Part shown: in pieces, positions 3,476 through 51,895 of the stretch
How positions within the stretch are numbered: position 1 is the stretch's first letter
Layout of the letters: every line of letters begins with the position of its first letter
NCBI GenBank assembly: GCA_964355375.1
Contig: CAYHFE010000003.1
Location: 1 to 51,895, forward strand
DNA: 51,895 nucleotides
Reading direction: 5' to 3'
Origin: an uncultured Verrucomicrobiota bacterium
GTDB taxonomy: Bacteria; Verrucomicrobiota; Verrucomicrobiia; Limisphaerales; SIBE01
The notes under the pieces: model-generated
The model's database searches: none
What the model was told of the DNA's origin: nothing
The model's input: only the letters and a program-made list of their open reading frames with translations
Program-made: the position numbers and the translations under genes

Positions 3476-3498
3476 AAGGCGATTCCTTTGGTTTGAGG

Positions 3499-5151: not shown

Positions 5152-5167
5152 AGTCGCTGTTTGCACA

Positions 5168-14554: not shown

Positions 14555-14671
14555 TTTCAATTTACTTAGCATGTCGGGGGGGCCGGTCGGCGATGGATGT
14601 CGCTTCCCGGCCGGTGCCCCATCGCCATCTGAAGCCGGTGGCGCGAGAATCCGGAGAGTCGAGCCGTCGCG

Positions 14672-18226: not shown

Positions 18227-18349
18227 CAGCAGTTCTCATTTTGACTCAGGACACGGTCCGTTCCACGCAGGTAGTCCCGGCTTCAGCCGGTTTTCACGTG
18301 GCGACCGGCTGAAGCCGGGACTACCTACTTGTCAAAATGAGAACTGCTG
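18227..18349 (+). mobile_element. MITE copy A (123 bp): 19-bp terminal inverted repeats, nested 20-bp inner inverted repeat, 9-bp direct flanks
   Basis: TIR cagcagttctcattttgac / gtcaaaatgagaactgctg. Inner IR gtagtcccggcttcagccgg / ccggctgaagccgggactac. cacggtccg lies immediately on both sides. Confidence 0.85.
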
Positions 18350-25394: not shown

Positions 25395-25582
25395 TTCAGT
25401 TGAGTTGGGGAGCGCACGCGCCCTCGCGTGCCGTGGTCGGCGCCCTCGCCGACCACACTGGCGTCTGCGAACGAATCACCGTTTGGTGAATGTCTTGGGC
25501 CTTCCTTCCGACCGGCGGGGCGCCGGTCGGCCCACGCGAGGGCGCGTATGCTCCCCAATTCCGACTGCATATCAACGGCTAA
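25395..25582. repeat. 188-bp four-hairpin intercistronic element, copy E1
   Basis: ttcagttgag...ccgactg-N-acggctaa ends. Outer stem ggggagcgcacgcgccctcgcgtg / cacgcgagggcgcgtatgctcccc. Inner hairpins gtggtcggcg-ccct-cgccgaccac and cgaccggcg-ggg-cgccggtcg. Near-identical copy at 47548..47735. Confidence 0.85.
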
Positions 25583-27767: not shown

Positions 27768-27889
27768 GCAGTTCTCATTTTGACAAGTATGTAGTCCCGG
27801 CTTCAGCCGGTCGCCACTTGAAAACCGGCTGACGCCGGGACTACCTGCGTGGAACGGACAGTGTCCTGAGTCAAAATGAGAACTGCTGC
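27768..27889 (-). mobile_element. MITE copy B (inverted relative to copies A and C)
   Basis: Reverse complement of copy A with a few substitutions. Flanked by ccggcgaa on both sides; the left end lacks the first 2 nt of the TIR. Confidence 0.85.
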
Positions 27890-37739: not shown

Positions 37740-38669
37740 ATGCGCTCTGTCAAAGCGGGCCTGATCGCCGCCAGCATCGGCATGGCCGTGAATTTTGTCC
37801 TGGCGATTGTGAAAATCGTCACCGGCATCGTGGGCCATTCCTACGCCCTCATCGCTGACGGCATTGAATCGACCGCCGACATTGTCAGCTCCATCGTGGT
37901 GTGGACCGGATTGAAGATTTCCTCCCTGCCCCCGGATGATGACCATCCTTACGGTCACGGCAAGGCGGAGTCCATCGCCGGCCTGGTCGTCGCGCTGGCC
38001 CTGCTCGCGGCCGCGGTTTTCATCGCGATTCAGAGCGTGCGGGAAATCATCACGCCGCATCACGCGCCAGCGTGGTTCACCTTGCTGGTCTTGGCGTTGG
38101 TGATCGCGACCAAGGAAACCCTCTATCGGTTCGTCTTCAAGGTGGGTGACGAACTGACCAGCACCGCCGTCAAGGGCGACGCCTGGCACCACCGCTCCGA
38201 CGCCCTTACCTCCGCGGCGGCCTTCATCGGCATCTCCATCGCGCTCATGGGCGGCCCAGGCTACGAGAGTGCGGACGACTGGGCGGCGTTGCTGGCGTGC
38301 GCGATCATCGTCTTCAATGGCTATCGCATTTTTCAGACGGCGCTGGGCGAGATCATGGATGCGGCCGTGCCCAATCCCATGCAAAAGGAAATCCGCGAAA
38401 TCGCCTCCGCGGTGACGGGTGTGGTCCGGGTGGAGAAATGCCGGACCCGCAAGAGTGGACTGGGGTTGATTGTGGAAATCCACGTCGAGGTGGACGGCGA
38501 TCTGACCGTCCGGAGCGGCCATGAAATCGCGCATGCTGTCAGCCGCCGTCTCAAGTCGTCCTCGCTGTCGGTCCAGGATGTCGTCGTGCATGTGGAACCG
38601 GCCCTGGCAGCGCTCGCCCACGCACCCGCCGCGACCGAGAGCACGGATGCGGGCCGGCGCCCATCCTAG
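37740..38669 (+). CDS. Cation diffusion facilitator (CDF) family metal efflux transporter
   Basis: 309 aa. SYALIADGIESTADIVSS...HPYGHGKAESI, six TM helices and a C-terminal cytoplasmic domain. Confidence 0.9.
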   Translation: MRSVKAGLIAASIGMAVNFVLAIVKIVTGIVGHSYALIADGIESTADIVSSIVVWTGLKISSLPPDDDHPYGHGKAESIAGLVVALALLAAAVFIAIQSVREIITPHHAPAWFTLLVLALVIATKETLYRFVFKVGDELTSTAVKGDAWHHRSDALTSAAAFIGISIALMGGPGYESADDWAALLACAIIVFNGYRIFQTALGEIMDAAVPNPMQKEIREIASAVTGVVRVEKCRTRKSGLGLIVEIHVEVDGDLTVRSGHEIAHAVSRRLKSSSLSVQDVVVHVEPALAALAHAPAATESTDAGRRPS

Positions 38670-38992
38670 CGGGCGGCGGTCCCACCGGCGGTGAGTTTCA
38701 GTTTGTCCTGGGGTTTTCCGGGCAATCGGCCGGCCCGATAGAGATCGAGGTAGCGGTTCAACAGGCTGGCCTGCTCTCCTTTGAGCTTGGACTTCTTGTT
38801 CATCTTTTCCATCCACAGCCCCCAGTCCGATTCCCCATAAGTCGTCGGTTCGTAAAACCGGTGGCATTTGGCGCACTTGACCACGTAGATTTTACGGGCG
38901 GCGGTGATCTCCCTCGCCGTCATTTCATTGGCCCAGGCGGCAGAATGAACCACCGCCAAGGCGATGAGCAACCACAGAAACAAAGGACGCAT
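38666..38992 (-). CDS. Small secreted CxxCH-motif protein (putative monohaem c-type cytochrome-like)
   Basis: 108 aa with a signal peptide and a single CAKCH motif. Confidence 0.5.
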   Translation of the reverse strand: MRPLFLWLLIALAVVHSAAWANEMTAREITAARKIYVVKCAKCHRFYEPTTYGESDWGLWMEKMNKKSKLKGEQASLLNRYLDLYRAGRLPGKPQDKLKLTAGGTAAR

Positions 38993-39000: not shown

Positions 39001-39828
39001 CTAGAAGTTGAGTCCAATGAGCAGGCGGACATTCATTCTTTCGTGGTCGTTGAGCTCAAGTTGACTATTGCCGTCCGGGCTGCGGCTGTTGTTCCAGCCA
39101 TAAATCTGCGGCATGACCGTCAACGCGGCCCACCACTTTTCCTGGCGGAAGCTGAGCACCGGACCAAGGAACAGCGCCGAATTCTCCCAGGAACTGTATT
39201 CGGGGAGAGTGTTTTCATTGCGAAACTCGAGCCCGAGCGCCCAATGTTTCCCGAAGTCGCGCGCCAGGCCGAAGCTCGCGCCCACCTCGCCTTCGACTTT
39301 GCGGAGATTGTCTTCCCATTCCGTTTCATGCTCGATGTTGAAAGCCCATTTCCAATTCCCGTGCCGCTGGCCCATGATAATCTTCTGCTCCACCGCGGCT
39401 TCCTCGCCCGAATGGCGGCCTTCGAGGTAAAGTGTCAGGCCGATCTTGTGGGTCGCGGGATTGAGGACGTTGAACCGGTTCTCGAGGGAAAGACCTTTCC
39501 ACTCGAATTCGGAGTCGTTTGCACCAGTCCCCCCATCCCGGAAACTCTGCGTTTTCTCGTTTAGATAAACCGCGGCTGTGTACCAATCGGTCACGCCATA
39601 TTCGAGTTCCTGGCGCAGGTCCCAGCGATGGTAGTTCTCCTGGCCGACGGTTTTGTTACGTCCGGCCCGCATCGTCACCCAGTTTTCGAACTCGAACGCT
39701 CCGGCCGGGAGCGTTTCCGGTTCGTAAACATAAGTAAAGCGCCGCTCATCAGCGCGGACTGAATTCAAAAACACAACGCCTGCCAACAATTCCGGCCACA
39801 ATAATCGTTTTAGTTTCATGGGCGTCAT
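39001..39828 (-). CDS. Outer-membrane beta-barrel protein (unknown family)
   Basis: 275 aa from the Met at 39828 (alternative 39819). Signal peptide, alternating amphipathic strands, C-terminal LLIGLNF ending in Phe. Confidence 0.65.
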   Translation of the reverse strand: MTPMKLKRLLWPELLAGVVFLNSVRADERRFTYVYEPETLPAGAFEFENWVTMRAGRNKTVGQENYHRWDLRQELEYGVTDWYTAAVYLNEKTQSFRDGGTGANDSEFEWKGLSLENRFNVLNPATHKIGLTLYLEGRHSGEEAAVEQKIIMGQRHGNWKWAFNIEHETEWEDNLRKVEGEVGASFGLARDFGKHWALGLEFRNENTLPEYSSWENSALFLGPVLSFRQEKWWAALTVMPQIYGWNNSRSPDGNSQLELNDHERMNVRLLIGLNF

Positions 39829-40021: not shown

Positions 40022-41011
40022 CTAATGCCGAGACGCCTTTTGGGTCGCCGTCTTGAGCGGATACAGACCTGGACAGCAGCCAAACGTCTCACGAAACACA
40101 GCGCTGAAGTGGCTCAGGCTATTATAGCCGACTTCCAGGGCTGCTTCCGTCACGTTGCACTTTCCGGTGCGAAGCAACTCAGCCGCACGTTCCATGCGGA
40201 CCTCCTGCAGGTATTGCGGAATGGTCCGCCCAGTCTCTTGCGAGAAGAGCCGGCTGAGGTAGAATGGACTGCATCCGACCTTTTGCCCCAATTGTTCCAA
40301 CGACGGTGGGTGTTCCAGTTCCTCCTTCAGAATTGCGCGGGCTCGCGCGATCCGCTCTCGGGCAGCCCGTTGCGCCCGCGTGCAAAAGAGCTCACCTCCG
40401 GCCGGACGGAAGAAAAGAAGCGCGGCCAATTCTAAAGCCTTGCATCGAAACCACGCTTCTTGTGCGGGTTTGAAGACCGGACAACGCCGCAAACCTTCGA
40501 TCAGTTGAAGCAACGACGAACCTAACCGCTCTGGTGCTGACACTTGAGAAACGCAAGCCGCGCGGCGCACGATGGCGCCGACGATGGGATGAAGGTCTCT
40601 CTCCTGGCCCGGAAAGTGTTGTTCAAGAAAATCCGGAGAATACTCGACGGTGATGAATCGATGAGTCTTGTTCGCCATTCGCCAGGCGATTAGAGGCGGG
40701 ACGCCGTGATAATAAAATGCGAACGTCCGGTCGGAGAGTTCGATGGATGCTTTGCCATCGTGCACCGTCGCGGGGCCGTCCAGGTTTAGGCACAGTTCCA
40801 AGCTTCCGGGATGAAAACTGCGCGCCCAATCCAAGGGCTCGGCCCGGGTGAACTCATGCCACTCCAAGCTGAATCCGAGATGATGATAGTTGCCAAAGAG
40901 GGGGCGCCAACCCGCTCCAATGGAACTCCATGCGGGAACCTCAGTGAAAGCAGCGTCAGTCCCACGACTTGGGCCAGACCGGTAAAAGGGGACTATTCGA
41001 TCAACGGGCAC
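40022..41011 (-). CDS. AraC family transcriptional regulator
   Basis: 329 aa. C-terminal double HTH (LEQLGQKVGCSPFYLSRLFSQETG...VTEAALEVGYNSLSHFSAVFRETFG). Confidence 0.9.
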   Translation of the reverse strand: MPVDRIVPFYRSGPSRGTDAAFTEVPAWSSIGAGWRPLFGNYHHLGFSLEWHEFTRAEPLDWARSFHPGSLELCLNLDGPATVHDGKASIELSDRTFAFYYHGVPPLIAWRMANKTHRFITVEYSPDFLEQHFPGQERDLHPIVGAIVRRAACVSQVSAPERLGSSLLQLIEGLRRCPVFKPAQEAWFRCKALELAALLFFRPAGGELFCTRAQRAARERIARARAILKEELEHPPSLEQLGQKVGCSPFYLSRLFSQETGRTIPQYLQEVRMERAAELLRTGKCNVTEAALEVGYNSLSHFSAVFRETFGCCPGLYPLKTATQKASRH

Positions 41012-41265: not shown

Positions 41266-41388
41266 CAGCAATTCTCATTTTGACTCAGGACACGGTCCGT
41301 TCCACGCAGGTAGTCCCGGCTTCAGCCGGTTTTCACGTGGCGACCGGCTGAAGCCGGGACTACATACTTGTCAAAACGAGAACTGCTG
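41266..41388 (+). mobile_element. MITE copy C (123 bp) with a perfect 9-bp direct flank
   Basis: Same TIR and inner IR as copy A. atccagacc lies immediately on both sides. Confidence 0.88.
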
Positions 41389-41547: not shown

Positions 41548-41924
41548 CTACGCGTTCGCTTCTTCCACCATCCGAAGGCGCTGCTCCTGAATGTCCGGGC
41601 TCGATGGAACGTCGTCGCAACCACCGCAACGAGACGGGTGGCGGCCGGGCATCTGATCGCGGAAGACCAGCGCGCCGGTCGGGCAACCGGCCACCCACTC
41701 GGCGGCTACTTTTTGCAGTCCGCCGGTCCGCAGCCCGCGCACACGCGAGGGCTCGGACTGGGCCCCTTCAGGAAGAGCTCGACTTCACCCTCCTCCAGGC
41801 GACCCATGATGCTGGAAAAGGCTTTCTCCCGTCGTAAAATTTTCTCGCTCCGCAGAAACCGGTCCGGTGCGGCGGCTGCGTTTCCTCCCTCGCGCCCATC
41901 GATGGTCAAAGTGATCAGACTCAT
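41548..41924 (-). CDS. Small ferredoxin-like protein split by a -1 frame change at C AAA AAG (about 125 aa if joined)
   Basis: ORF 41706..41924 ends ...RVCAGCGPADCKK*. The -1 frame continues VAAEWVAGCPTGALVF..., completing a Cys-x2-Cys-x4-Cys...Cys-Pro cluster motif. Confidence 0.45.
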
Positions 41925-41970
41925 CGCTGTCCCGTCGCTCTCCCGCTCCGGGACAAGCAGGTCAGCTTGC

Positions 41971-44325
41971 TCATTTCACCTCGATGGCCTGGCTCGGACA
42001 AACCTGGCGGCACGTATCGCAGCGCGTGCAGAGATCGAGGTTGATCTCGTGCCTTTGATAGGGCGTCATCGGAATGGCATCCACCGGGCAGCGCTGTGCA
42101 CATATCGTGCAGCCGGTGCAATCGTCGGTCACCTGGTACTTGATCAGACCCTGGCAGCGACGCGCCGGACAGCGGCCGCGCAAATGCGCTTCGTATTCGT
42201 CACGGAAATAACGCATCGTGGTGATGACCGGATTCGGCGCCGTTTTGCCCAGACCGCAGAGGCTGCCCCGGCTGACCCAATTGGACAACCGCTCCAATTC
42301 GTCCAAGTCTTGGCGTTGGGCCTTGCCGGTGCAGAGCCGCTCGAGAATATCCAGCATGCGCCTCGTCCCCACCCGGCAATAGGTGCACTTGCCGCACGAC
42401 TGATCCTGGGTGAACTGAAGAAAATAACGCGCGATATCCACCATGCAGTCGGCGTCATCCAACACCACCAGTCCGCCCGACCCCATGATCGCACCGACCT
42501 CGCGCAGCGATTCGTAATCCACCGACGTATCAGCCAACCGCGCCGGCACACACCCGCCGGACGGTCCGCCGATCTGGACTGCTTTGAAGCGCCGTCCCTC
42601 CGCCGCGCCGCCGCCAATTTCCTCGACGATTTCCCGGATGGTCGTGCCCATGGGCACCTCGATCAGACCGCCGCGCCGAACCTTTCCCGCCAGCGCAAAG
42701 ACCTTGGTTCCTTTGCTCGATTTCGTGCCATAGGCGGCAAACGCGTCCGCCCCGTGCCGAATGATCCAAGGAACCAAAGCGAGGGTCTCGACGTTATTGA
42801 TGACGGTGGGCTTGCCCCAGAGACCGGACTGCGCCGGGAACGGCGGCCGCAAGCGCGGCATGCCGCGTCGTCCCTCGATCGAGGCGATCAAGGCTGTTTC
42901 TTCGCCGCAAACAAAAGCTCCGGCGCCTTCCTTGATCGAGAGACGCAAGGGATAAGCGCTGCCCATCAGGCGTTCACCCAACCAGCCGCGCTGCTCGCAC
43001 ATTTCGATGGCCGCCCGTACTCGTCGCACCGCCAGCGGATACTCGCGGCGAATGTAGAAGATGCCTTCATGCGCGCCCACCGCGATCGCGGCAATGGCCA
43101 TTCCCTCGATGATCCGAAAGGGAAAGGACTCGAGCAGCATCCGATCCATGAACGCGCCCGGATCCCCTTCGTCGCCGTTGCAAATGGTGTACTTGATGTC
43201 GGCGATTTGCCCGCGGGCGGTCCGCCATTTCGGTCCGGTGGGATATCCCGCGCCCCCCCTTCCGCGCAACCCGGACTGCTCGATGACTTCGATCGTCTTC
43301 TCGGGCGACAACTCATTGAGGCAGCGGCGGACGGCGGTGAATCCGTCATGGGCCAGGTATTCCTCGAGGTTGAGCGGATCGATCTGACCGAAGTGCTCGG
43401 TGGCGATGTGGACCTGTTTGTCCAGAAACGCCTTCACGCCTGTTTCCCGGGTACTCAACGAGTAGCGAGCGATCCGTTCTTCGCCATCGTCCAGGAGGAG
43501 GGCGTCCAACGCCCGGGACCAGAGACGCGACATTCGCTGCCGAAACTTGCGCGGACGGAAATGGCGCAGAATGACGTCGTTGGCTTTGGCGGGGGTCACG
43601 CCTGCGTAAAACGTGCTCGATTTGCCCGGAACCGCCACTTCAATGAGGGGCGTGCGATGGCACATGCCGACGCAGCCCACTCGCTTGATAGTGACGTTGG
43701 CCCCGGTCTGGCTGACGCTTTCCTGGAGCGCGTGAAAGAGTCGATCGCTACCCTTGGCCATGCAGCAAGATCCGAGGCCAATATGGATCTGCGCCCCCGG
43801 AACGCCGCTGGGATGATGGTCCTCGGTCGATTTTCCCTTGGCCAGATCGGAATCGTAGCGGGCCAGAAAATCGCGGACAATGTCCGGAAATTTCTCCGCC
43901 GTGACATGGCCAAAAGTGCTGTCCTCGATCTTCACGACCGGGGCCAGCGTGCAGCAGCCCAGGCAGGCGACGGGTTCGATGGTGAACTGTCGATCCGGAT
44001 CGGTGTCATCGCCGGCCGGAATACGCAGGCGGCGGCGGACGGCGTCTTCGACCCGTTCCGCGCCGGTCACATGGCAGGCGGTGCCGCGGCAGACACGCAC
44101 AATGATCTTGCCCACCGGTCGATGACGGAACATGTCGTAGAACGTCGAAACCCCGGTGATGCTGGCCGGCGTGATCTGCGTCAGGCTGCAGACCCGGCGC
44201 AGCGCCTCCTCCGGCAGGTAGCCGTAATGCTCCTGCATGGCCTGCAGAATGGGGATGACGGCGTCGGGCGTCCGGCCGGCTTCCGCCACGGTCTGATCCA
44301 CAAAACTGAGGTCAATCTCTGGCAT
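41971..44325 (-). CDS. Fused NuoE-like / thioredoxin-like [2Fe-2S] / NuoF-like (FMN, NAD(P)H) / 2x[4Fe-4S] flavoprotein (HydB/HndC/HoxF-type diaphorase)
   Basis: 784 aa. NuoE-like CRGTACHV...CLGCC, second [2Fe-2S] module GSCCMAKG...CVGMCH, NuoF motifs GLRGRGGAGYPTGPKW and CGKCTYCRVG, C-terminal CTGCTICAQRCP and CTRCDTCRQVCP. Confidence 0.9.
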   Translation of the reverse strand: MPEIDLSFVDQTVAEAGRTPDAVIPILQAMQEHYGYLPEEALRRVCSLTQITPASITGVSTFYDMFRHRPVGKIIVRVCRGTACHVTGAERVEDAVRRRLRIPAGDDTDPDRQFTIEPVACLGCCTLAPVVKIEDSTFGHVTAEKFPDIVRDFLARYDSDLAKGKSTEDHHPSGVPGAQIHIGLGSCCMAKGSDRLFHALQESVSQTGANVTIKRVGCVGMCHRTPLIEVAVPGKSSTFYAGVTPAKANDVILRHFRPRKFRQRMSRLWSRALDALLLDDGEERIARYSLSTRETGVKAFLDKQVHIATEHFGQIDPLNLEEYLAHDGFTAVRRCLNELSPEKTIEVIEQSGLRGRGGAGYPTGPKWRTARGQIADIKYTICNGDEGDPGAFMDRMLLESFPFRIIEGMAIAAIAVGAHEGIFYIRREYPLAVRRVRAAIEMCEQRGWLGERLMGSAYPLRLSIKEGAGAFVCGEETALIASIEGRRGMPRLRPPFPAQSGLWGKPTVINNVETLALVPWIIRHGADAFAAYGTKSSKGTKVFALAGKVRRGGLIEVPMGTTIREIVEEIGGGAAEGRRFKAVQIGGPSGGCVPARLADTSVDYESLREVGAIMGSGGLVVLDDADCMVDIARYFLQFTQDQSCGKCTYCRVGTRRMLDILERLCTGKAQRQDLDELERLSNWVSRGSLCGLGKTAPNPVITTMRYFRDEYEAHLRGRCPARRCQGLIKYQVTDDCTGCTICAQRCPVDAIPMTPYQRHEINLDLCTRCDTCRQVCPSQAIEVK

Positions 44326-44352
44326 ACGATGAACCCAAGGGCGCGCTGGTTG

Positions 44353-46176
44353 TCATGGCTTCTCGCGCGCGCTGGCCAACTTCTCCTCCTTCTCGCCCAG
44401 GCAATAGAGATTGGTCGCGCCGCGGAGATAAATCCGATGGTTCACGAACGCCGGGCTCGCAAAAAACGCATCGCGCATTTCCGTGCGCGCGAGTTGTTTG
44501 AACTGCCGGCCCGCCTCGGTCACAATCGCCGAGCCCTTTGTGCCAAACAGGTAGAGCCGGTCCCCGGAGATGCTCGGGGACGCGTGAAAATCGGTCTCGA
44601 AGTCATGTTCCCATACTTTCTTGCCGTCTTTCGCGTCGTGGCACGTCAGCAATCCGCCCGAGGTCACCGTGAAGACCAGCTCTCCGTTTCCGACCGGACT
44701 GGTGATGTCAGGGATGTTCTCCTCGGAACTCCAAGCCACGTGCGTTTTGCTGACGTCCCCCTGTCCGTCGGGCCGAATCGCCATCAGCTTGTCCGTCGGG
44801 CTGGGCGCGAGGACCAGTCCACCGGCGAAGACAGGCGACGGAGTGACTTCCCCACTCATGCCTTCGACGCGCCAAAGCTCCGTGCCGTCGTTCGCATGGT
44901 AAGCAATGACGAACGGAACGCTGAGCGTGACCACCTGGGGTTTGCCGGCCGCCGTGATCACGATCGGGGTCGCCCAGGAGGTCGAGACGGGACGCTGCCG
45001 TTGCCAGACGATTTGCCCGCTGGCTCCGTCAAACGCGTAGAGCTTGGATTGCCGCTGTTCGCTTTCGCCTTGGTCCAACTGCACCAAGAGCCTTCCTTGC
45101 CAGGTCGCGAGGGATGAGGCATGCCCGTATGGATTTTTCGGGACACCCAGATGCTTGGACCAAACCGGATTCCCCTCCAAGGTCAAGGCCGCCAAATCTC
45201 CATTGGCAAAGATCACATAGACGCGGCGTCCATCCGTGGCCATGGTGGAAGCGACATAACCCGTTTGCTCGGGAATCTCCGGGACTTGGGCCGGGCTTCC
45301 GGGAACATTCAACACGGGCCGCTCCCAGAGGGTCTGGCCAGTGCGGGCGTCCAGGCAATAGACCGAGCGCTTCACCGCATCGCCTCCGGAAAGCAAGACG
45401 CGCGAGCCCCAAACGATCGGCGAATTGAAACCCGGCGCCGGAACGGCCACCTTCCAAATGACCCCCCGCCCTTGCGCGACATCCCAGGTCAACGGCGCGT
45501 TGGTTTGGGACGACACCCCGCCGCCGTCTGCTCCGCGAAACCGCGGCCAATTGCTCTGCACTTCCTCCGGGGATGGCAAATCGACCGTCGCCGAAACCAC
45601 GCTCCCGCCACTCTCCGCTCCGCCGACCAACTTCTCGATCTCGGCGAGTCGCGTGGGCAAGACTGTGCCGATGGACAGGCTGAGCGAGAGAAAGGCCAAC
45701 ACGACGGTCGCGCCCAGCCCTGCGACCATCCATCGGGCCCGCTGGGCGCCGCGGGCCACGAGTTTTTCCGGGTCTGGCTTCGGCAGAGGCCGGGGCGGTT
45801 GGCGATCGAAGGTGAGAACCATTTTCGCCGCGATCAGGAACACCGCGACACCGACGAACAGAAGATAACTGCCTCTCGTGGTCAGCGACAACTGCCGGAA
45901 ATAGCCGCGCCGCAATTGCAGATCGAGCTCACGAACCTGCGTCTTCAGTGCTTCGTCATTCGGAGAAAGCCGCAACTTCTCCTTGGCCGCCTGAATCTGC
46001 TCGGGCTTTAGAAGATCCACGGGCCGGGCCTCGATCTGGGCCAGAATCATGGCCAGCCAGATCATCAGCGAGAACACTCCGGCAATCACCACGGTCAATC
46101 GAAAGGCCAGGCGCGGGGCCGGTTCCGCCGGGGGCACGGCAGGCACCGCAAGAGTTGGGGTGGCGGGATTGGACAT
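44353..46176 (-). CDS. Membrane-anchored (3 TM) PQQ-like/BamB-like beta-propeller protein
   Basis: 607 aa. N-terminal TM helices followed by repeats of the G.L.A.D..TG...W type (VYCLDARTGQTLWE, LYAFDGASGQIVWQ, LTCHDAKDGKKVWE). Confidence 0.8.
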   Translation of the reverse strand: MSNPATPTLAVPAVPPAEPAPRLAFRLTVVIAGVFSLMIWLAMILAQIEARPVDLLKPEQIQAAKEKLRLSPNDEALKTQVRELDLQLRRGYFRQLSLTTRGSYLLFVGVAVFLIAAKMVLTFDRQPPRPLPKPDPEKLVARGAQRARWMVAGLGATVVLAFLSLSLSIGTVLPTRLAEIEKLVGGAESGGSVVSATVDLPSPEEVQSNWPRFRGADGGGVSSQTNAPLTWDVAQGRGVIWKVAVPAPGFNSPIVWGSRVLLSGGDAVKRSVYCLDARTGQTLWERPVLNVPGSPAQVPEIPEQTGYVASTMATDGRRVYVIFANGDLAALTLEGNPVWSKHLGVPKNPYGHASSLATWQGRLLVQLDQGESEQRQSKLYAFDGASGQIVWQRQRPVSTSWATPIVITAAGKPQVVTLSVPFVIAYHANDGTELWRVEGMSGEVTPSPVFAGGLVLAPSPTDKLMAIRPDGQGDVSKTHVAWSSEENIPDITSPVGNGELVFTVTSGGLLTCHDAKDGKKVWEHDFETDFHASPSISGDRLYLFGTKGSAIVTEAGRQFKQLARTEMRDAFFASPAFVNHRIYLRGATNLYCLGEKEEKLASAREKP

Positions 46177-46190
46177 GGCTCAGGGCTGTT

Positions 46191-47513
46191 TCAGTGGCTC
46201 TTCTCCCCCGTCGCGAGACTGGGTGGGGCTTCACAGCCGGGACCCAGCGCCGGCATGATCCCCCGCCGGACCAGCTCGTTCGGACAAAACTCAAAACACC
46301 GCGCACAGGCCAGGCAAGCTCCGCGGTCCGGTTCATAATCGGCGCGAGTCTGGCGGAGCGCGAGCCCGACGAATTTCAGCCCGACGACCAACCCGACCCA
46401 ACCGCCAAACAACCATCCGCCCCATCCGAAACGCCGCCGAGTTTCCAGCGCGGCGGCCAGGAGTTCCTTGGGATTTTTTTCCGCCCGGGACAACGCGAGA
46501 GTCTCGGGGGTTTGGCTGACCCCGCGGATGGGCTGGCCCGCGTGGCTGACGAATCGCTCTGCCAGCGCCACATCCGGATGAAGGCGCGAGGCGGCCACGC
46601 TCAATCGGCCACCCAGCCAACCGGTCAGACCGATTAAGACTGGCAAGAGCACGAGGAATCCGGCCAACCGCTTCCGTTCGAGGCGCAGGCTCAGTGGATT
46701 CGGCGGCGGAGCCCACGGTTCGCGCAAGGCGCCGTAGGGACAGGACGCCTCGCACAGTCGGCATTGGGTGCAGGTGTTCGGTGTCACCCGCACGCGCCAT
46801 TTTGAAACCATCGCCGCCAGTTTGAGCAGGGCGCCATAGGGACAAAGAAACCGGCAATAGGGTCGCCCGACGAACATGCCGACCAAAAGAAAGGCGGCTC
46901 CCAGCATGAGCATGCTGAAACTGCCGCTGAGCCGAAAGAGCGGCACAAATGGGTCATACCGACAGATCACGAAGGCGCTCCCCGTGACCGCAAACAGGAC
47001 CCCGGCGCCGAGAAAAATGAAGGGCACCAATCCCAGGCCCTGCTCCAGCCAGGCCGGCACCTTGACCGGCTTCAGCAAGACCAGATCTTGCAGGGCGCCG
47101 TGCGGACACACCGCCGCGCAAAAGGTCCGCCCGAAAAAGAGACTGACCAGCAGCGGGGCGAAAAAAAAGACCGCGACTGTCCAGGGCACGGCGTAGCCGC
47201 GATCACCCAGGGCCAAGGCCACGTTTTGCAGCGAGCCAATCGAACACACACACCCCTCGCGATAGAATCCAAAATAGGCCAGAGAAAAGAGCGACAGGCC
47301 AAACACGGCGCGGCGCGACCGTTTCTTGAAGACGAGATAAGAGGCGAGACTCAGAGCCGCCACCAAGACCAGGGCATCGATATAATGCCAAGACACCGCG
47401 CGCGGCAAAGGCGTCTGCGTGCTCGGGACTTGGTAACCGCCCTCGAAATCCGGCGGCGGGAATCGCGGTTCCGCCACGGCGGTCCCGACCAACAGCATCC
47501 CCATCGTGACCAT
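46191..47513 (-). CDS. NapH/MauN-like integral-membrane polyferredoxin
   Basis: 440 aa from the Met at 47513. TM helices with CxxxCP motifs (FCAAVCPHGALQD, CRFLCPYGALLK), plus CTQCRLCEASCP and C-terminal CLACARCFEFCP. The 711-aa track ORF is an artefact that reads through repeat E2. Confidence 0.8.
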   Translation of the reverse strand: MVTMGMLLVGTAVAEPRFPPPDFEGGYQVPSTQTPLPRAVSWHYIDALVLVAALSLASYLVFKKRSRRAVFGLSLFSLAYFGFYREGCVCSIGSLQNVALALGDRGYAVPWTVAVFFFAPLLVSLFFGRTFCAAVCPHGALQDLVLLKPVKVPAWLEQGLGLVPFIFLGAGVLFAVTGSAFVICRYDPFVPLFRLSGSFSMLMLGAAFLLVGMFVGRPYCRFLCPYGALLKLAAMVSKWRVRVTPNTCTQCRLCEASCPYGALREPWAPPPNPLSLRLERKRLAGFLVLLPVLIGLTGWLGGRLSVAASRLHPDVALAERFVSHAGQPIRGVSQTPETLALSRAEKNPKELLAAALETRRRFGWGGWLFGGWVGLVVGLKFVGLALRQTRADYEPDRGACLACARCFEFCPNELVRRGIMPALGPGCEAPPSLATGEKSH

Positions 47514-47547
47514 ACCGAGAAGAATCCAGACACCCAAGGTGCATCTC

Positions 47548-47735
47548 TTCAGTTGAGATGGGGAGCGCACGCGCCCTCGCTTGCTGTGATCGGCGCCCTC
47601 GCCGACCACGTTGGCATGCTCCGATGAATCATCGCCTTGTGACTGAATGGGGTTCTCGTTCCGACCGGCGGGGCGCGGGTCGAAACACGCGAGGGCGCGT
47701 GTGCTCCCCGAATCCGACTGGGCACTTACGGCTAA
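47548..47735. repeat. 188-bp four-hairpin intercistronic element, copy E2
   Basis: Same ends, outer stem and inner hairpins as E1, with scattered substitutions. Lies between the NapG-like and NapH-like genes. Confidence 0.85.
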
Positions 47736-47911
47736 GCCGTGACTCAAGTGAGTCTGCCGTTGAACGGGGCGGGGACGGCCCGTCTCCGGTTGGCGTGAGA
47801 GCACCGCGAGGCGCCCCCGGGACGCCGGCGCACTTTCCTCCCGGGATGCGCCGTCGCCCTGAATCGTCCGCGTCTTCGCGGCGGCGGAAAATGAAACCAG
47901 GCCGGTCATGG

Positions 47912-48484
47912 TCAATGAGTCGATGTCTTCAGCTTGTAAGGATGGTTCACCGACACTCGGCGGAAGGCATCTCCAGGGCAGACGCGGCCAATGGCACATT
48001 CGTTGCAGTTCAGGCAGCGGTCCTGCCGGACCTGCATGAAAAGAGATCCGTTGCCAAACCGATTGCATCCTTCCACGCATTTCGCGCAGCCCATGCACAG
48101 ATCTTCGTCGATCACATACTCGTAGTAGGGATCCTCCACGAAGGTTCGTTTGATGGCGGCGGTCGGACAGAGTTGATTCTCCGCCCCCGTGTTCAGGTCG
48201 TTGGGCTCGGGAACGAAGTAGCCGGTGCAGAGCTGGCAATACCCACAGAGGGCATGGGCGTGAACGCATTTGGCGGCCGACTGTTCCAGAACACACGAGG
48301 TCGCGCACAGGCCGCAACGCAGACATTTCTGGGGATCGATCTGCCAGACCGTCGTCTTGGCGTCGCTGCGCGTGGCCAGGGTCCCGATCAAACCGCCCAG
48401 ACCGGCCACGGCCGCAGTTCGCGCTCCGTCGCGCAGGAACTGCCTGCGGCTCACATGAACTCCCGCTTTGGGATCAGCAGCCAT
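47912..48484 (-). CDS. Tat-exported polyferredoxin (NapG/MauM-like, multiple [4Fe-4S] motifs)
   Basis: 190 aa. SRRQFLRDG twin-arginine signal; CLRCGLCATSC, CGYCQLC...CP, CMGCAKCVEGC, CLNCNECAIGRVCP. Confidence 0.85.
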   Translation of the reverse strand: MAADPKAGVHVSRRQFLRDGARTAAVAGLGGLIGTLATRSDAKTTVWQIDPQKCLRCGLCATSCVLEQSAAKCVHAHALCGYCQLCTGYFVPEPNDLNTGAENQLCPTAAIKRTFVEDPYYEYVIDEDLCMGCAKCVEGCNRFGNGSLFMQVRQDRCLNCNECAIGRVCPGDAFRRVSVNHPYKLKTSTH

Positions 48485-48530
48485 AGTTTTCTTTCTCGAA
48501 CACTCGCTAGGACGTTTCTATGCAGTCCGG

Positions 48531-48714
48531 TTCAGGGTGGAACGGGCAACTTGCCCGTTCCTGTGGGCGACCAGCCCACAGGCTTTGCTGCCGGAAATCT
48601 CACTGATTCGTGACTTCAATGGCCGGGCCAGACTCGGCGGCAAGTTGCCGCCGAGAACGGGCTGGCAGCCCGTTCCACCCCTTTCACCCATTTCAACTGC
48701 ATTCATACGGCTAA
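48531..48714. repeat. 184-bp four-hairpin intercistronic element, divergent copy E3
   Basis: Shares the ttcag lead-in, the central gtgact-caatgg core and the caactg-N-acggctaa tail with E1/E2. Its four hairpins have different sequences (48539..48561, 48562..48580, 48636..48652, 48655..48675). Confidence 0.7.
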
Positions 48715-49802
48715 GACGCTTCGGCCCCGGCTTTCCCCGCCCCCGTCTTCCGCGCCATGATCCGAATGTCTCCGACCACCAGGTCCAGAATATAAACCCG
48801 ACCCCGCCCGTCCACCGCCACATCCAAACCGCCGTGCGTCGCGTCGGACATGGAATCGTCTGAAGTCGATTTCTGGTTTTCGATGAACGATTCCGGCCCC
48901 GCCACGACCGACTCCAACGATCCGTCCACTCCGTAAATCTTAACCCGCGGCAAGCCTTTCTCACAGGTGACATATCGTCCGTCCGCCAGGAGCGTGAAGT
49001 TGACCGGGTTGCAGCACCCGCAGAAACCGTCCACCGCCGCCGACGCCTTCCCCCACGACCATTCGAAGTCCCCATTCGGCGTGAAGATCTCGATCTGGTG
49101 GCGGCCGGGATTGGCCACCCGGAGCATGCCATCCCGATGCCATTCCAGGTCGAAGAACGGGCTGGGCACGACGAACCCGGGCACATCCTTAGCCTGATTC
49201 TTCTCGCCAATCCGGCCGATCAGTTTTCCCGACCGGTCATACCTGAGCACGACCCGATGCCCCGCATCCGCCGCGAATACGTCATTCGGCCCGATGGCCA
49301 CGCCGGTGAACCAGGTCCGCGCTCCGGGGGGATCCCAGACGGCCCGGCGCGTTCCCTGACGGTCATAAAATTCCAAATGATCGCGCAACCCCACGCAGAT
49401 CGTTCCGTCCTCGCCCAAGGCCAGGCAGCGCGGAGGCGTGGTCAAGGCGATCTCCGATTCCCTGACTCCCGCCAAATTCAGGACATGGACGTAATTCCCC
49501 GCCGCCAGGAAAATGCGCTCGTCCCGAATGGCGATGCGGCGCGGGTCCTCCAAAACCTTGGCGATTCGGCCCACCTCCTCGAAATGAAGCCAGCGCGGAT
49601 CGGTCCGGGTGAGACTCGTCACGTCGTAGGCGAACGGATTGGATTCGTCGCGCGCCGTGATGGATGAGGCCCGTCGGCGCAACTGCCGAGCCGCTACGGC
49701 GACACCCGCCGCCGCCACCACAACTCCCGCGCCGGCCGCGCCGCGTCGGATGAATTGACGTCGATTGAACGATCGAGGCTCCGGATTCTCGGGCATAGTC
49801 AT
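48711..49802 (-). CDS. Tat-exported NHL-like beta-propeller protein with a CGCC motif
   Basis: 363 aa. NRRQFIRRG signal; blade-like repeats (RVVLRYDRSGKLIGRIG, HQIEIFTPNGDFEWSWG, RVKIYGVDGSL, RVYILDLVVGDIRIM); DGFCGCCNPVNF. Confidence 0.7.
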   Translation of the reverse strand: MTMPENPEPRSFNRRQFIRRGAAGAGVVVAAAGVAVAARQLRRRASSITARDESNPFAYDVTSLTRTDPRWLHFEEVGRIAKVLEDPRRIAIRDERIFLAAGNYVHVLNLAGVRESEIALTTPPRCLALGEDGTICVGLRDHLEFYDRQGTRRAVWDPPGARTWFTGVAIGPNDVFAADAGHRVVLRYDRSGKLIGRIGEKNQAKDVPGFVVPSPFFDLEWHRDGMLRVANPGRHQIEIFTPNGDFEWSWGKASAAVDGFCGCCNPVNFTLLADGRYVTCEKGLPRVKIYGVDGSLESVVAGPESFIENQKSTSDDSMSDATHGGLDVAVDGRGRVYILDLVVGDIRIMARKTGAGKAGAEAS

Positions 49803-50032
49803 CCTCCAGTCTGAGCTCGCCGAACGGCGCGCGCCTGCGGCAAATCACACCGCGTCACCCGAAGGCAACCGCCACACGGGCCGGATTTCACGCACTGACC
49901 GCCGGGGGCCGTTTGCCGCGTCCGTGCCACCCACACCGCCACGATCGCCAGCACTGCCAGCACACTGTTCCGCACCGCGTCGCGCACGAAGTCTCGACGA
50001 TTCGGAACCAGGTTCGGATCAGCACTTTTCAT
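49799..50032 (-). CDS. Small Tat-signal/TM protein with a C-x5-C-x2-C-x5-C tail
   Basis: 77 aa. NRRDFVRDAV followed by a hydrophobic helix, then QCVKSGPCGGCLRVTRCDLPQA. ATGA overlap with the NHL gene start. Confidence 0.55.
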   Translation of the reverse strand: MKSADPNLVPNRRDFVRDAVRNSVLAVLAIVAVWVARTRQTAPGGQCVKSGPCGGCLRVTRCDLPQARAVRRAQTGG

Positions 50033-50307
50033 ACAGTTTCTGATGAGTCTTTGACGACCGGGCCATAACGCTCATTTCCGCAAAAACACAGAAATCGCCA
50101 GGCGAACTTCGCTTAAATTGTCCAACGAATAACCGAAGACGGCTAACTCTGTTTTGTCAAAAGCTGACCGTATTTTGCCCGGAGCGGTTGGAGAGCTCCA
50201 TTCCAGCCGGCGGAGACGAGACCGAATTCTGATCGTGAGGAATTCGCCGCAGTTGGAGATTGGAAGAGCACTTCTCCGGACATCGGTTCTCCTTTCCCAA
50301 CAGGCTC

Positions 50308-51732
50308 TCATGGCTTCGCCACGTCGAGACAGACCATGCGAGAAAAATCGCGGACCAGGAGGCGGCCACCGGCCAAGGCCATTGGCCCCCAGGACTCGCG
50401 GCCGTTCAGGACTTGCGCCTGAGCCAGAGGGCGGAACTTGCTCGAGTCGGTCTCGATCAGACTGAGACGCCCGGAATCGTTCAAGGCGAAGATCGCCTCT
50501 CCCGCCATCAGAAATGAGCCCAGTCCAAACGAGTGGCCAGCGTCGCTCGCCCAAACTACCTTGCCGGTCAAATCCAAGCAAACGAATCGGCCATCCGGAC
50601 GCACCCCGAAGAGATGTTGTCCATGGAAAATGGGCGAATGTTGGGTAGCTCCGAATACGTCGGGGCCGAGGCGAAACAAAATCTTCGCTGCCCACCGACC
50701 GCTCTCCTCCCGCAATTGCATCATCAAGCTGCCCGCGTCATAGCCGCCGCTCAGAAATAGCTTCCCCTCCGGCAACACCACCGGAGATGGAATGGTGGCG
50801 ATGCTGATCTTCCAATCGGTCGTGTCCCAAAGAATCGCGCCGTCTTTGGCCGATACCCCCACCACCCCGAGGTTGGCGCAATAGACATACATGCGCCGTC
50901 CGCCCCACTCCATCGGAACCACCGAAGAATGGGTCATCTTCCAGCCCTTGGGATTCTCGGATTGCCAGACCGTCTTGCCGGTTTCCAGATCGACCGCCAG
51001 CAGCAGCGCCTTGGGCCCGCCCGGCGCCAGAATGACGGTCCCGTTATCCACGAGCGGGCATTGACCGGCATACCAGGGCGGGACGGTTGCGCCAAACTGC
51101 CGGGCCAAATCCAGCCCCCAGCGCAATTCCCCGGTCGCCGCATCCAGGCACAGAACATGACACTTCGGGCCCATGGCGATCACGTATTTTTCCGTCACGG
51201 TCGGCACGGTCCGCGACATGCCGTGATTGCGTTTGACGGGGTTCGGATAGGTGTAACGCCAGATCTCTTTTCCGTCCGCCAACGACAGGCACCGGAGGGC
51301 GTCCTGCTTCTTCTCGCGGTCGTAATCCATCAGGTAGATTCGCCCCGCTCGCACCGCCGGACCAGCGTAGCCCTCGCCCAGTTCGACGGACCACAACGCG
51401 CGCGGCCCGGTGGGTGGCCAGGCCTTGAGCAAACCGGATGATTCCGGAGCCATTCCATCGCCATTGGGACCGCGAAATCCGGGCCATAGCCCCGGCAGCT
51501 CCGCCGCTTGGCCATCCGAACGAACCAATTGTCCGGTCAACACGGGATTAGCCGACCCGGTCCCCTGAGCGGTTCCGGGTGATTGGTCCGTCCCCGGTAC
51601 CCGCAGTGCCACAACTTGGCGCGGGCGGCTTCCCAACCACACGATGAGCGTCGCCACGGCGAGAAACGTGGCCGCCACCGGAAGCATCGGAACGAACCGT
51701 TCGAATCTCGCTCGGTAGATTTCTGCTTTCAT
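50308..51732 (-). CDS. Membrane-anchored (1 TM) PQQ-like/BamB-like beta-propeller protein
   Basis: 474 aa from the Met at 51732. TM helix VPMLPVAATFLAVATLIVWL followed by propeller repeats (LRCLSLADGKEIWR, VLCLDAATGELRWG, LLAVDLETGKTVWQ). Confidence 0.8.
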   Translation of the reverse strand: MKAEIYRARFERFVPMLPVAATFLAVATLIVWLGSRPRQVVALRVPGTDQSPGTAQGTGSANPVLTGQLVRSDGQAAELPGLWPGFRGPNGDGMAPESSGLLKAWPPTGPRALWSVELGEGYAGPAVRAGRIYLMDYDREKKQDALRCLSLADGKEIWRYTYPNPVKRNHGMSRTVPTVTEKYVIAMGPKCHVLCLDAATGELRWGLDLARQFGATVPPWYAGQCPLVDNGTVILAPGGPKALLLAVDLETGKTVWQSENPKGWKMTHSSVVPMEWGGRRMYVYCANLGVVGVSAKDGAILWDTTDWKISIATIPSPVVLPEGKLFLSGGYDAGSLMMQLREESGRWAAKILFRLGPDVFGATQHSPIFHGQHLFGVRPDGRFVCLDLTGKVVWASDAGHSFGLGSFLMAGEAIFALNDSGRLSLIETDSSKFRPLAQAQVLNGRESWGPMALAGGRLLVRDFSRMVCLDVAKP

Positions 51733-51840
51733 GAATGTTTGAACTGATGGTCGGCCCGAGGTCGGCCTGCCCAACTCACCGCTCGGCCCACCACTATGGA
51801 CGAAACATTCGGAAATAACTTCATCCCAAGGCGCGGCCCC

Positions 51841-51895
51841 CAGCAGTTCTCATTTTGACAAGTATGTAGTCCCGGCTTCAGCCGGTTGCCACGTG
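51841..51895 (-). mobile_element. MITE copy D, truncated by the window end (same orientation as copy B)
   Basis: cagcagttctcattttgacaagtatgtagtcccggcttcagccgg... matches the first 55 nt of copy B. Confidence 0.8.

Follow-up and report, generated by a model that had tools for sequence, protein, structure and literature searches.

A widely conserved Verrucomicrobiota gene cluster that may encode a membrane-spanning electron-transfer complex with a Bfu-type flavoprotein, NapGH-like polyferredoxins and propeller proteins

The DNA stretch of 51,895 nucleotides analysed here (the window) carries a gene cluster that is real and widely conserved, and that has apparently remained unstudied. It encodes a fused BfuC-BfuB flavoprotein, a NapH-like membrane polyferredoxin, a NapG-like polyferredoxin, an NHL propeller, two PQQ_2 propellers and a 77-aa Tat-signal protein. 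From the observed gene content, motifs, homology, synteny and a pseudogene, we infer a physical complex, its topology, the direction of electron flow and its chemistry. On balance, it seems somewhat probable that the gene products form a single membrane-spanning complex of several subunits, of an uncharacterised type, in which NAD(P)H-derived electrons would flow outward to a reduction at the NHL protein. The original prediction had already read a route between cytoplasm and periplasm from the parts, and this suggestion stands; its account of the flavoprotein's partner and of the last gene needs correction.

Gene layout and conservation

All open reading frames were found on the minus strand, where they had been predicted. 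The PQQ1 propeller gene (50308..51774; another ATG start at 51732 gives 474 aa) is separated by a 275-nt spacer (50033-50307) from the gene of the 77-aa protein (49799..50032), which shares an ATGA overlap at 49799-49802 with the gene of the 363-aa NHL propeller (48711..49802). The NapG-like (190 aa, 47912..48484), NapH-like (46191..47537), PQQ2 (44353..46176) and 784-aa fusion (41971..44325) genes follow. The gaps had also been given correctly, with 14 nt between the NapH-like and PQQ2 genes, 27 nt between PQQ2 and the fusion, and 46 nt between the fusion and the next open reading frame. Seven members of the proposed eight-gene set are as described, whereas the eighth, a supposed small ferredoxin, is a deletion remnant (41644..41924).

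Both larger gaps contain the structured elements expected there, which were recognised by inverted repeats and folding energy and have no strand. The spacer between the NHL and NapG-like genes holds a 146-nt insertion (48535..48680; MFE -91.8 kcal/mol, z -9.03) that is missing from relatives, where the median gap is 33 nt. The spacer between the NapG-like and NapH-like genes holds a 150-nt MITE/REP-like hairpin (47560..47709; z -7.95), with a second copy in the window at 25407-25556. Directly downstream of the cluster lies a REP-like palindrome of 81 nt (41296..41376, no strand; z -7.71), a partial copy of which is located upstream of the cluster (51853-51895). Across the window, four places carry seven palindrome half-sites in total, where 0.02 would be expected. 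A mobile element ending in the 55-nt inverted repeats on either side of the cluster (41334-41388 and 51841-51895) was considered and rejected, because the palindrome is also present at 18257-18337 and 27778-27858 and is thus a dispersed REP-like element. The Rfam scan of the window matched only the SRP RNA, outside the cluster. Promoter and terminator signals were no higher than the shuffled expectation, so the scan does not inform the operon limits.

The order NHL, NapG-like, NapH-like, PQQ2, BfuCB fusion and BfuA was colinear in 80 of 80 species-level Verrucomicrobiota genome loci, which is far beyond chance. In loci long enough to show each gene, per-gene presence was 94–100%, with the NapG-like gene in 70/70, the NapH-like gene in 64/64, PQQ2 in 59/59 and the fusion in 53/55; the median intergenic gaps were 33-121 nt. 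A PQQ1 homologue was present within 6 kb upstream of the NHL gene in 30 of 65 loci, and besides it no conserved flanking gene (regulator, client enzyme or cofactor synthesis) was found among the relatives' loci. The same gene set, often with overlapping stop and start codons, surrounds distant NHL relatives (~35-45% identity) in a Poribacteria-labelled MAG, a 7.5-Mb genome, a Kiritimatiellae MAG and several other contigs. The cluster is carried by at least 533 species-level genomes, mostly Verrucomicrobiota of soil, peat, groundwater and lake. Co-occurrence and synteny show that, over hundreds of genomes, these genes are conserved together and stay closely linked. Pfam, NCBIfam, solved structures and searchable papers assigned the set to no already characterised system, and literature searches on NapH, NHL, polyferredoxin, PQQ, Bfu, Stn and the PVC phyla found no account of the cluster.

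The flavoprotein core and its partner

Sequence homology identifies the 784-aa protein as BfuC and BfuB fused into one core, with StnB/NfnB as its nearest counterparts. Its Pfam domains (2Fe-2S_thioredx, Complex1_51K, SLBB, NADH_4Fe-4S and Fer4_21) correspond, from N to C terminus, to a NuoE-type [2Fe-2S] module, a second thioredoxin-like [2Fe-2S] module, an FMN/NADH site, a [4Fe-4S] site and a C-terminal 2x[4Fe-4S] domain. The BfuC part (2Fe-2S_thioredx, E 4.7e-52, residues 10-152) has cysteines at 79, 84, 121 and 125, and the NuoE model scored 151.7 bits against a cut-off of 141. The BfuB part, with its FMN/NADH site, aligned end to end with StnB and NfnB, and the cysteine motifs were kept (fusion residues 187/188, 218, 222, 644, 647, 650, 690, 736-746 and 766-776). 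The N-terminal thioredoxin-like [2Fe-2S] and C-terminal 2x[4Fe-4S] domains are the hallmark of BfuB and are absent from non-bifurcating NuoF homologues (PMC9304861). The closest PDB entries were 8oh5_B (E 5.6e-214), 9n5u_B and 9bov_B. The modules of the NuoEF-type protein originally described (NuoE, second [2Fe-2S], NuoF and 2x[4Fe-4S]) are therefore all present, and its identity is refined to a BfuC-BfuB core. By family, the flavoprotein module seems to be of the electron-bifurcating type, the activity itself being predicted. In NfnB, ferredoxin docks on the C-terminal 2x[4Fe-4S] domain (PMC12018979), which makes this domain a possible docking place for the ferredoxin-like domain of the membrane protein.

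The view that the flavoprotein has no catalytic partner was wrong at the family level, as an Nfn-BfuA-like gene comes next in 46 of 49 sufficiently long loci. In relatives, the intact gene encodes a ~540-aa Fer2_4/Fer4_20/FAD protein, and its closest PDB entries are the same Stn/NfnABC structures as for the fusion (8oh5, 9bov, 9n5u). In the window, the open reading frame taken for a small ferredoxin (41548-41924 region; zero family matches in Pfam and NCBIfam) is a pseudogene remnant of this partner, almost wholly deleted. Searching with the intact protein of locus L003 (tblastn) recovered three leftover pieces of the gene: a 72-aa open reading frame (41706-41924) joins BfuA residues 1-11 in frame to ~340-396, and a frame-shifted piece (41644-41721) matches residues ~502-527. 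The BfuA with FAD- and NADP(H)-binding domains that characterises Nfn-Bfu/Stn transhydrogenases is thus represented in the window by a remnant only. An error of one assembly was considered as the cause; the 72-aa open reading frame recurs on two other contigs, though these may come from the same sample. With BfuA destroyed, the local system may be non-functional; this copy of the cluster is either decaying or a plain NADH-fed version.

Two forms of BfuA were observed in the relatives. The long form (16 loci) has the full domain set and aligns with NfnA residues 4-672, both Rossmann domains included, whereas the short form (36 loci, plus L093 and L095 of distant lineages) lacks exactly the NADPH-binding subdomain. 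In terms of overall composition, the cluster shares with StnABC/NfnABC the end-to-end BfuB with FMN/NADH and all Fe-S motifs, the NuoE-type BfuC and, in the 16 relatives with long BfuA, the match to NfnA. It differs in that BfuC and BfuB are fused, BfuA has no C-terminal molybdopterin-like domain, and the Bfu genes always sit among genes for membrane and periplasmic proteins that the soluble enzymes do not have.

The solubility of Stn/NfnABC enzymes (PMC10482914, PMC12018979) would be compatible with two independent neighbours, namely a soluble Stn/Nfn-type transhydrogenase and a quinol-fed, NapGH-like periplasmic module with the NHL protein. Two loci, L024 and L084, hold the periplasmic genes without adjacent Bfu genes, which also counts against a single complex. 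Moreover, true NapGH is a quinol dehydrogenase. Such a division is nevertheless quite improbable, because the genes remain neighbours in the same order in 53 of 55 loci and over phylum-level distances, with small gaps or overlaps, and because most BfuA proteins, having no NADPH-binding subdomain, would not be ordinary transhydrogenases.

The short BfuA also bears on the direction of flow, as it leaves the third substrate undefined in most loci, and Bfu enzymes are reversible. The propellers could oxidise a periplasmic donor and pass electrons through the NapG-like and NapH-like proteins to BfuA, from which BfuBC would bifurcate to NAD+ and ferredoxin, or make NAD(P)H. We consider such inward flow unlikely: Pfam and NCBIfam searches found no Mo, haem or PQQ signatures, and in the window BfuA is deleted while the other genes are intact, which would be hard to explain with BfuA as the sole link.

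Membrane-bound Bfu types, Nuo-Bfu and Mbh-Bfu, have been predicted (PMC9304861). They have in common with our cluster a BfuBC core amid membrane-protein genes, suggesting a membrane-attached bifurcating complex. Where those types have complex-I or Mbh subunits as membrane partners, the present cluster has the NapH-like protein together with propellers and Fe-S proteins of the periplasm that carry Tat signals. The terms Verrucomicrobia, periplasm, GltD and fused gave no match in that paper.

Membrane and periplasmic proteins

The NapH-like protein, whose start is ambiguous (TTG 47537 or ATG 47513), belongs to the NapH/NosR/MauN superfamily (Fer4_5, E 9.6e-16). Hydropathy indicates ~7 TM segments, and the 16 invariant cysteines include two CxxxCP motifs and two CxxCxxCxxxCP motifs separated by a TM hairpin. 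The periplasmic side is predicted to carry the conserved RFPPPDFE motif and a CxC + C set. The NapG-like protein (Fer4 matches) has a Tat motif, SRRQFLRDG, with an RR that persists in distant lineages, and its 17 cysteines, invariant in 77 sequences, are enough for four [4Fe-4S] clusters.

This architecture, a Tat four-cluster ferredoxin with a membrane protein bearing two CxxxCP and two [4Fe-4S] motifs, is shared with NapGH, NosGH and MauM/MauN. The resemblance announced by the original labels therefore holds for the architecture, but it is distant, with scores far under the model cut-offs: 19.8 bits for the NapG equivalog (cut-off 269), and, for the NapH-like protein, 41.7 for NapH (234), 38.1 for NapH/MauN (213) and 33.8 for NosR (1000). 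Unlike the known proteins, the NapH-like protein has an N-terminal signal-like segment and RFPPPDFE, and its ferredoxin domain is interrupted by an additional pair of TM helices. None of the loci carries a gene for NapA, NosZ or methylamine dehydrogenase, and neither the window cluster nor the genes conserved around it in 80+ loci include a molybdoenzyme or show an association with NapAB. With NosR, RdhC and CcoG the NapH-like protein shares the Fer4_5 membrane core with cytoplasmic Fe-S clusters, and these known proteins are thought to serve periplasmic enzymes. It differs in having no Pfam match to FMN_bind, the periplasmic domain of NosR and RdhC and a NosR/NirI hallmark, and no CcoG-specific domains among the Pfam matches listed. 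Sequence searches of the PDB returned no relatives of the NapH-like protein and nothing beyond weak ferredoxin-motif matches for the NapG-like protein. The predicted NapH-like structure had a pLDDT of 57, and its fold search gave nothing at E<=0.001.

The NHL protein contains a Tat motif (NRRQFIRRG) and the sequences FCGCCNP and TCEKGLPRVK; R14, R15, F17 and C261, C263, C264 and C280 are invariant in 20 Verrucomicrobiota sequences. Structure prediction gave a six-bladed NHL fold of 24 strands (AlphaFold, pLDDT 78), and the top Foldseek matches were NHL domains (probability 1.0), the best in the PDB being those of TRIM2/Brat. These domains and virginiamycin B lyase share the six-bladed fold (TM up to 0.78 on the target) at a sequence identity of 12-16%. 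The fold search returned generic NHL or propeller matches only, and no functional analogue. Pfam gave no match to the window protein at E<=0.01, although PF01436 is precomputed on many homologues. The family comprises 1169 50%-identity clusters (E<=1e-30), with relatives also named from Pirellulales, Aminicenantes, Armatimonadetes and KSB1.

Across this wider family, the vicinal Cys-Cys of GCCNP is the sole universal feature. The predicted Tat NHL propeller with a CGCC motif is thus borne out, but its four-cysteine site is not universal: C261 and C280 vary in distant relatives, the set is not kept outside Verrucomicrobiota, and many distant relatives have plain TM anchors instead of a Tat signal. 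The cysteine variation and the missing Tat signals weaken a [4Fe-4S] cluster on the four cysteines as a candidate, and they speak against a general mechanism based on a pre-inserted Fe-S cluster. Strong conservation of residues on the NHL surface hints at a site for catalysis or ligand binding, and the protein is presumed to be the periplasmic catalytic subunit. To our knowledge, the NHL proteins described so far include no redox-partnered, Tat-exported subunit with FxGCCNP, and our literature search for such subunits found nothing.

The 77-aa protein combines a Tat motif (NRRDFVRDA, RRxF), a hydrophobic stretch and a C-x5-C-x2-C-x5-C pattern, and has no match in Pfam or NCBIfam. A small homologue with RRxF, a hydrophobic stretch and CxNxGIC-GC-x5-CGLPQALSAK adjoins the NHL gene in 70 of 87 loci, and homologues also occur in the distant clusters L082, L089, L090 and L093. 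It may be a subunit that binds a single Fe-S cluster or a metal. Like the NHL and NapG-like proteins, it is a predicted Tat export substrate with an RR invariant in alignments.

The universal vicinal pair and the further conserved periplasm-facing cysteines of the NapH-like and small proteins could also belong to a maintenance or maturation system, whose reducing power would keep periplasmic thiols, copper or another metal reduced and which would carry out no respiratory or catabolic reaction. Among characterised Fer4_5 proteins, some act as accessory or maturation factors: NosR serves N2O reductase and CcoG the copper of cbb3 oxidase, and MauM/MauN would be a further parallel. NosR and NapH/MauN family matches below cut-off were obtained here, and an FGE-sulfatase gene lies near the cluster in two relatives, though it is not conserved. 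The probability of such a role appears small, as there is no co-conserved client protein and an eight-gene complex with a bifurcating-type flavoprotein would be heavy machinery for it.

Both PQQ_2 propellers follow N-in anchors. PQQ1 (PQQ_2, E 1.4e-29) has one TM segment (residues 27-45), and PQQ2 (E 8.4e-28) has three, with its propeller predicted to be periplasmic. The PQQ dehydrogenase model TIGR03075 scored 25.3 and 50.3 bits, respectively, against a cut-off of 480. Quinoprotein dehydrogenase models thus stayed far under their cut-offs for both proteins, giving no evidence of PQQ binding, and PQQ2 had only weak PDB matches, to BamB and quinoproteins (E >= 5e-6). The proteins called PQQ-like are membrane-anchored propellers, as proposed, but of the PQQ_2/BamB type. 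A single PQQ1-NHL "fusion" (P0304) was downgraded as proof of contact between these two proteins; an internal Met and TM segment make its topology contradictory, and it may be a read-through artefact.

Proposed electron path and its significance

In the complex that we favour, the BfuC-BfuB core would bind NADH/FMN and about six Fe-S clusters in the cytoplasm and, in relatives, would pair with an Nfn-type BfuA carrying [2Fe-2S], 4Fe-4S clusters and FAD, with the NADPH subdomain present or not. The core would couple to the NapH-like protein, with two [4Fe-4S] and two CxxxCP motifs on its predicted cytoplasmic side. In the periplasm, electrons would be exchanged with the NapG-like four-cluster ferredoxin, the small Cys4 Tat protein and the NHL propeller with its GCCNP motif. 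Both PQQ_2 propellers are probably scaffold or substrate-binding parts rather than quinoproteins. The direction is most likely outward: NADH-derived electrons (NADPH-derived in long-BfuA forms), whose potential bifurcation may have lowered, would power a reduction at an NHL site based on thiols or a metal.

Several observations weigh against this path. The low confidence of the NapH-like model leaves the transmembrane step a prediction, and the Bfu module could connect via BfuA (the "third substrate" port) instead of the ferredoxin port, or run inward. The destroyed BfuA of the window, the restricted NHL Cys4 set and the many relatives without a Tat signal also count against it. An Rnf-like loop would send electrons out to periplasmic carriers and back, with ion translocation between ferredoxin- and NAD-level potentials and no external substrate. 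Some parts are weakly similar to RnfB and RnfC, and Rnf also routes electrons via periplasm-facing cofactors. This loop is highly improbable, since Pfam and NCBIfam revealed no RnfA/D/E/G homologues and no flavin-binding periplasmic domain, and the conserved NHL surface points to a catalytic or ligand-binding site.

A more specific form of the outward complex is conceivable, though we regard it as rather doubtful: the Bfu flavoprotein would dock on the NapH-like protein and export low-potential electrons to a thiol-based periplasmic NHL reductase using the vicinal Cys-Cys pair. No such coupling would have a precedent, and the complex would represent a new class of redox enzyme in the envelope. 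The electron route across the membrane in NapH/NosR-type proteins is a long-standing question. A version hard-wired genetically to a defined NADH flavoprotein would be a tractable model of transmembrane electron transfer with a known entry point. The Bfu family, whose known members are mainly soluble enzymes of anaerobes, would gain a membrane- and periplasm-linked type, and BfuA would show stepwise loss of the NADPH domain. The current labels of these genes ("hypothetical", "NosR regulator", "NuoF", "BamB") mislead. An envelope redox reaction distributed this widely could have a part in how poorly cultured phyla cycle carbon, sulfur or metals.

Conservation and layout of the gene cluster

In 185,579 species genomes, a motif-seeded scan yielded 533 stretches encoding a relative of the NHL protein. 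The best 80 of the 533 loci, almost all from Verrucomicrobiota MAGs of soil, peat, groundwater and lakes (the close relatives are MAGs throughout), were compared with the window proteins by tblastn. The colinear order NHL, NapG-like, NapH-like, PQQ2 (the propeller with three TM segments), NuoEF fusion and partner gene was present in 80/80. Among loci long enough to show each gene, NapG-like was found in 70/70, NapH-like in 64/64, PQQ2 in 59/59, the NuoEF fusion in 53/55 and the BfuA-like partner in 46/49; the gaps between matches had medians of 33–121 nt. For PQQ1, the propeller with one TM segment, 30 of 65 loci had a copy no more than 6 kb upstream. The small Tat/Cys4 ORF, with the motif C-x5-C-x2-C-x5-C followed by GLPQALSAK, adjoined the NHL gene in 70 of 87. 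Clustering of all flanking ORFs revealed no further conserved neighbours.

The NHL family extends well beyond these loci. When 1.84 billion representative proteins were searched with a profile, 1169 clusters matched at E ≤ 1e-30, with divergent members labelled by their sources as Pirellulales, Armatimonadetes, Aminicenantes, Kiritimatiellae and KSB1. Around NHL relatives at ~ 35–45% identity, this set of genes recurred, and the stop codon of one gene often overlapped the start codon of the next. This was the case for the distant loci L089 and L090, the P0389 contig, L093 (on a 7.5-Mb genome) and L095 (Kiritimatiellae), and for L082, a Poribacteria-labelled MAG of 46% GC, with extra genes inserted. 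The Aminicenantes locus L094 ends at the NHL gene, so that only the upstream PQQ_2 gene is visible. The 80/80 colinear loci and the shared gene set around distant relatives decisively rule out that the genes are not co-conserved.

We also observed genes upstream of the cluster in individual relatives. In L003 (4735–5691) and L088 (3124–4086), an FGE-sulfatase gene (formylglycine-generating enzyme family) is situated a few kb away, in L088 separated from the cluster by an integrase-bearing island; the gene was found near the cluster in these two relatives, with no wider conservation. In L001/L002, two contigs related to each other, a haem-copper oxidase set (COX1-4, CtaA, UbiA/CtaB family; 900–7650) directly adjoins the cluster, which is probably a coincidence; it indicates that the host is aerobic.

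In the window, the predicted ORFs at 41.5–51.8 kb are all present on the minus strand, and their spacing is as originally described, with an ATGA overlap at 49799–49802, a spacer of 275 nt occupying 50033–50307, and gaps that measure 14, 27 and 46 nt. The two other large gaps indeed hold one strongly structured element of ~ 150 nt each. The element between the NapG-like and NapH-like genes (47560–47709, RNA fold z −7.95) is MITE-like, bounded by 39–50-nt terminal inverted repeats, and has a second copy in the window at 25407–25556. The one between the NHL and NapG-like genes (48535–48680) is a single-copy, 146-nt nested hairpin (MFE −91.8 kcal/mol, z −9.03). Both insertions are missing from the relatives, whose spacers are short; the two elements are dispersed MITE/REP-like insertions. 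Moreover, an 81-nt REP-like perfect palindrome occupies intergenic positions 18257–18337, 27778–27858, 41296–41376 and 51853–51895, the last cut by the window end. Its half-site, GTAGTCCCGGCTTCAGCCGG, occurs seven times in the window, where 0.02 occurrences would be expected. The cluster lies between two copies that form a 55-nt inverted repeat, which could mislead if taken for transposon ends, the palindrome being dispersed over four places in the window. Elsewhere, a small bacterial SRP RNA was identified at 14461–14557 (+) (Rfam RF00169, 67.1 bits, full length). Downstream of the cluster are genes for an AraC-family regulator (40022–41011, minus; HTH_18 E 1e-23), a DUF6662 protein (39001–39822, minus), a secreted 108-aa protein bearing the haem-c-type motif CAKCH (38666–38992, minus) and a CDF cation-efflux transporter (37740–38669, plus), none of them kept beside the cluster in other genomes.

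The Bfu core and its partner

Family searches agreed with the predicted composition of the 784-aa protein (41971–44325), namely NuoE, a second thioredoxin-like [2Fe-2S] module, NuoF and two [4Fe-4S] clusters. Its best PDB matches were 8oh5_B (E 5.6e-214), 9n5u_B (“NfnB”) and 9bov_B, to which it aligned end-to-end with every Cys motif kept. These entries are Stn/NfnABC (Nfn-Bfu) electron-bifurcating transhydrogenases (PMC10482914, PMC11829005, PMC12018979). As defined in the Bfu family survey (PMC9304861), a Bfu core consists of BfuB, with clusters absent from non-bifurcating NuoF homologues, and BfuC. The 784-aa protein fits this definition, which identifies it, at the sequence level, as a fused BfuC-BfuB core.

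In the relatives, the NuoEF fusion is followed by a gene of 520–700 aa with Fer2_4, Fer4_20, FAD/Rossmann and HydA/Nqo3-like Fe-S domains; its product best matched, in the PDB, A/C chains from the entries also matched by the 784-aa protein. With an Stn/NfnABC-type core and such a BfuA partner, the original view that no catalytic partner is present is therefore wrong for the family. The “small ferredoxin” of the window proved to be a pseudogene remnant of this gene. A search of the window with the intact L003 partner recovered three leftover pieces and nothing more, corresponding to residues 1–11 (MSLITLTIDGRE), ~ 340–396 (in frame with the first) and 502–527 (41644–41721, in a different frame); no ferredoxin motif set survives in the remnant, and it matched no family. 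The identical 72-aa remnant ORF was found on two other contigs (ENA ERZ4201063 and Logan ERR3856787), which may come from the same sample as the window and whose independence is thus uncertain.

Intact BfuA occurs in two forms. The long form (~ 700 aa, 16 loci; for example L006 17539–19641) aligns to NfnA residues 4–672, including the NADPH-binding Rossmann domain. The commoner short form (~ 520–540 aa) was found in 36 loci, such as L003 (17705–19321), and in the distant L093 (17233–18804) and L095 (18571–20133); it lacks exactly the ~ 165-aa NADPH-binding subdomain but retains the FAD and Fe-S regions. The remnant in the window adds a third state, in which nearly the whole gene is gone, at the end of this natural domain-deletion series. 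Because the short form predominates and the loss in the window is nearly total, most cluster members, judged from their sequences, cannot be ordinary NADPH transhydrogenases.

Membrane and periplasmic proteins

Family searches recovered the predicted 190-aa Tat ferredoxin, the Fer4_5 membrane polyferredoxin and both PQQ_2 propellers, PQQ1 with its one N-terminal TM segment and PQQ2 with three; hydropathy was the sole source for the topology of the cluster's membrane proteins. In the NapG-like protein, 17 Cys residues are invariant, a number sufficient for four clusters, and an RR motif is kept in all lineages examined. The alignment of the NapH-like protein revealed 16 invariant Cys residues, which make up two CxxxCP motifs, two CxxCxxCxxxCP motifs split by a two-helix insertion, a CxC pair (C100, C102) and C196. 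Its N-terminus resembles a signal segment, and the motif RFPPPxFE is likewise invariant. Both CxxCxxCxxxCP motifs are predicted from hydropathy and charge to be cytoplasmic, and the CxC pair and C196 are predicted near the periplasmic face; structure prediction for this protein gave no usable model. The “NapG/NapH-like” label holds for architecture but not for family membership: against the NapG, NapH and NosR models both proteins scored far under the cut-offs, and they are architectural analogues. Likewise, the “PQQ-like” proteins are PQQ_2 propellers, but quinoprotein models failed to match them.

The 363-aa Tat protein had no Pfam match, yet its structure prediction bore out the NHL assignment, with a six-bladed propeller (pLDDT 78) nearest to the NHL domains of TRIM2 and Brat. 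In Verrucomicrobiota, C261, C263, C264 and C280 are invariant; in the wider family, the motifs F-x-G-C-C-N-P and T-x-E-K alone are, and in many members a plain TM anchor replaces the Tat signal. Since the four Cys residues are not invariant family-wide and many members lack a Tat signal, we favour, as a general mechanism, a thiol- or metal-based NHL site that would be served by Tat-exported Fe-S proteins over an Fe-S cluster bound by NHL itself. In L089 (6240–8690), an 816-aa gene call (P0304) joins a PQQ1-type propeller to NHL; the two parts are 49% and 44% identical to their counterparts in the window, and an internal Met and a TM segment lie at the junction. It may be a real fusion with a puzzling topology, or a read-through artefact of a lost stop codon.

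A possible transmembrane electron route

Taken together, the data suggest a single transmembrane electron-transfer complex as the best-supported reading, ahead of two independent units, an Rnf-like loop, and a maintenance or maturation role. The Bfu core would be linked to the periplasmic NHL protein via the NapH-like, NapG-like and small proteins. In NfnABC, ferredoxin docks at the C-terminal clusters of the BfuB subunit (PMC12018979); here, its place might be taken by the cytoplasmic domain of the NapH-like protein, which resembles a ferredoxin. Alternatively, BfuA might receive the feed of the membrane module as a “third substrate”. We favour outward over inward flow, and the NapH-like contact over the BfuA route. 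In the window, BfuA is the one cluster gene that has not stayed intact, which is weak evidence, as the local copy may simply be decaying.

Every module of the cluster belongs to a known superfamily, and the NapGH, NosGH and NosR systems follow a parallel logic, from a cytoplasmic donor through a membrane polyferredoxin and a Tat ferredoxin to a periplasmic enzyme. We found no description of the cluster in the literature, including the Bfu survey (PMC9304861). We consider it rather unlikely that the cluster represents an entirely new class of redox enzyme in the envelope. What is new is the combination with a Bfu core, a BfuA devoid of the NADPH domain, a terminal NHL subunit bearing two vicinal Cys residues, and obligatory propeller partners.
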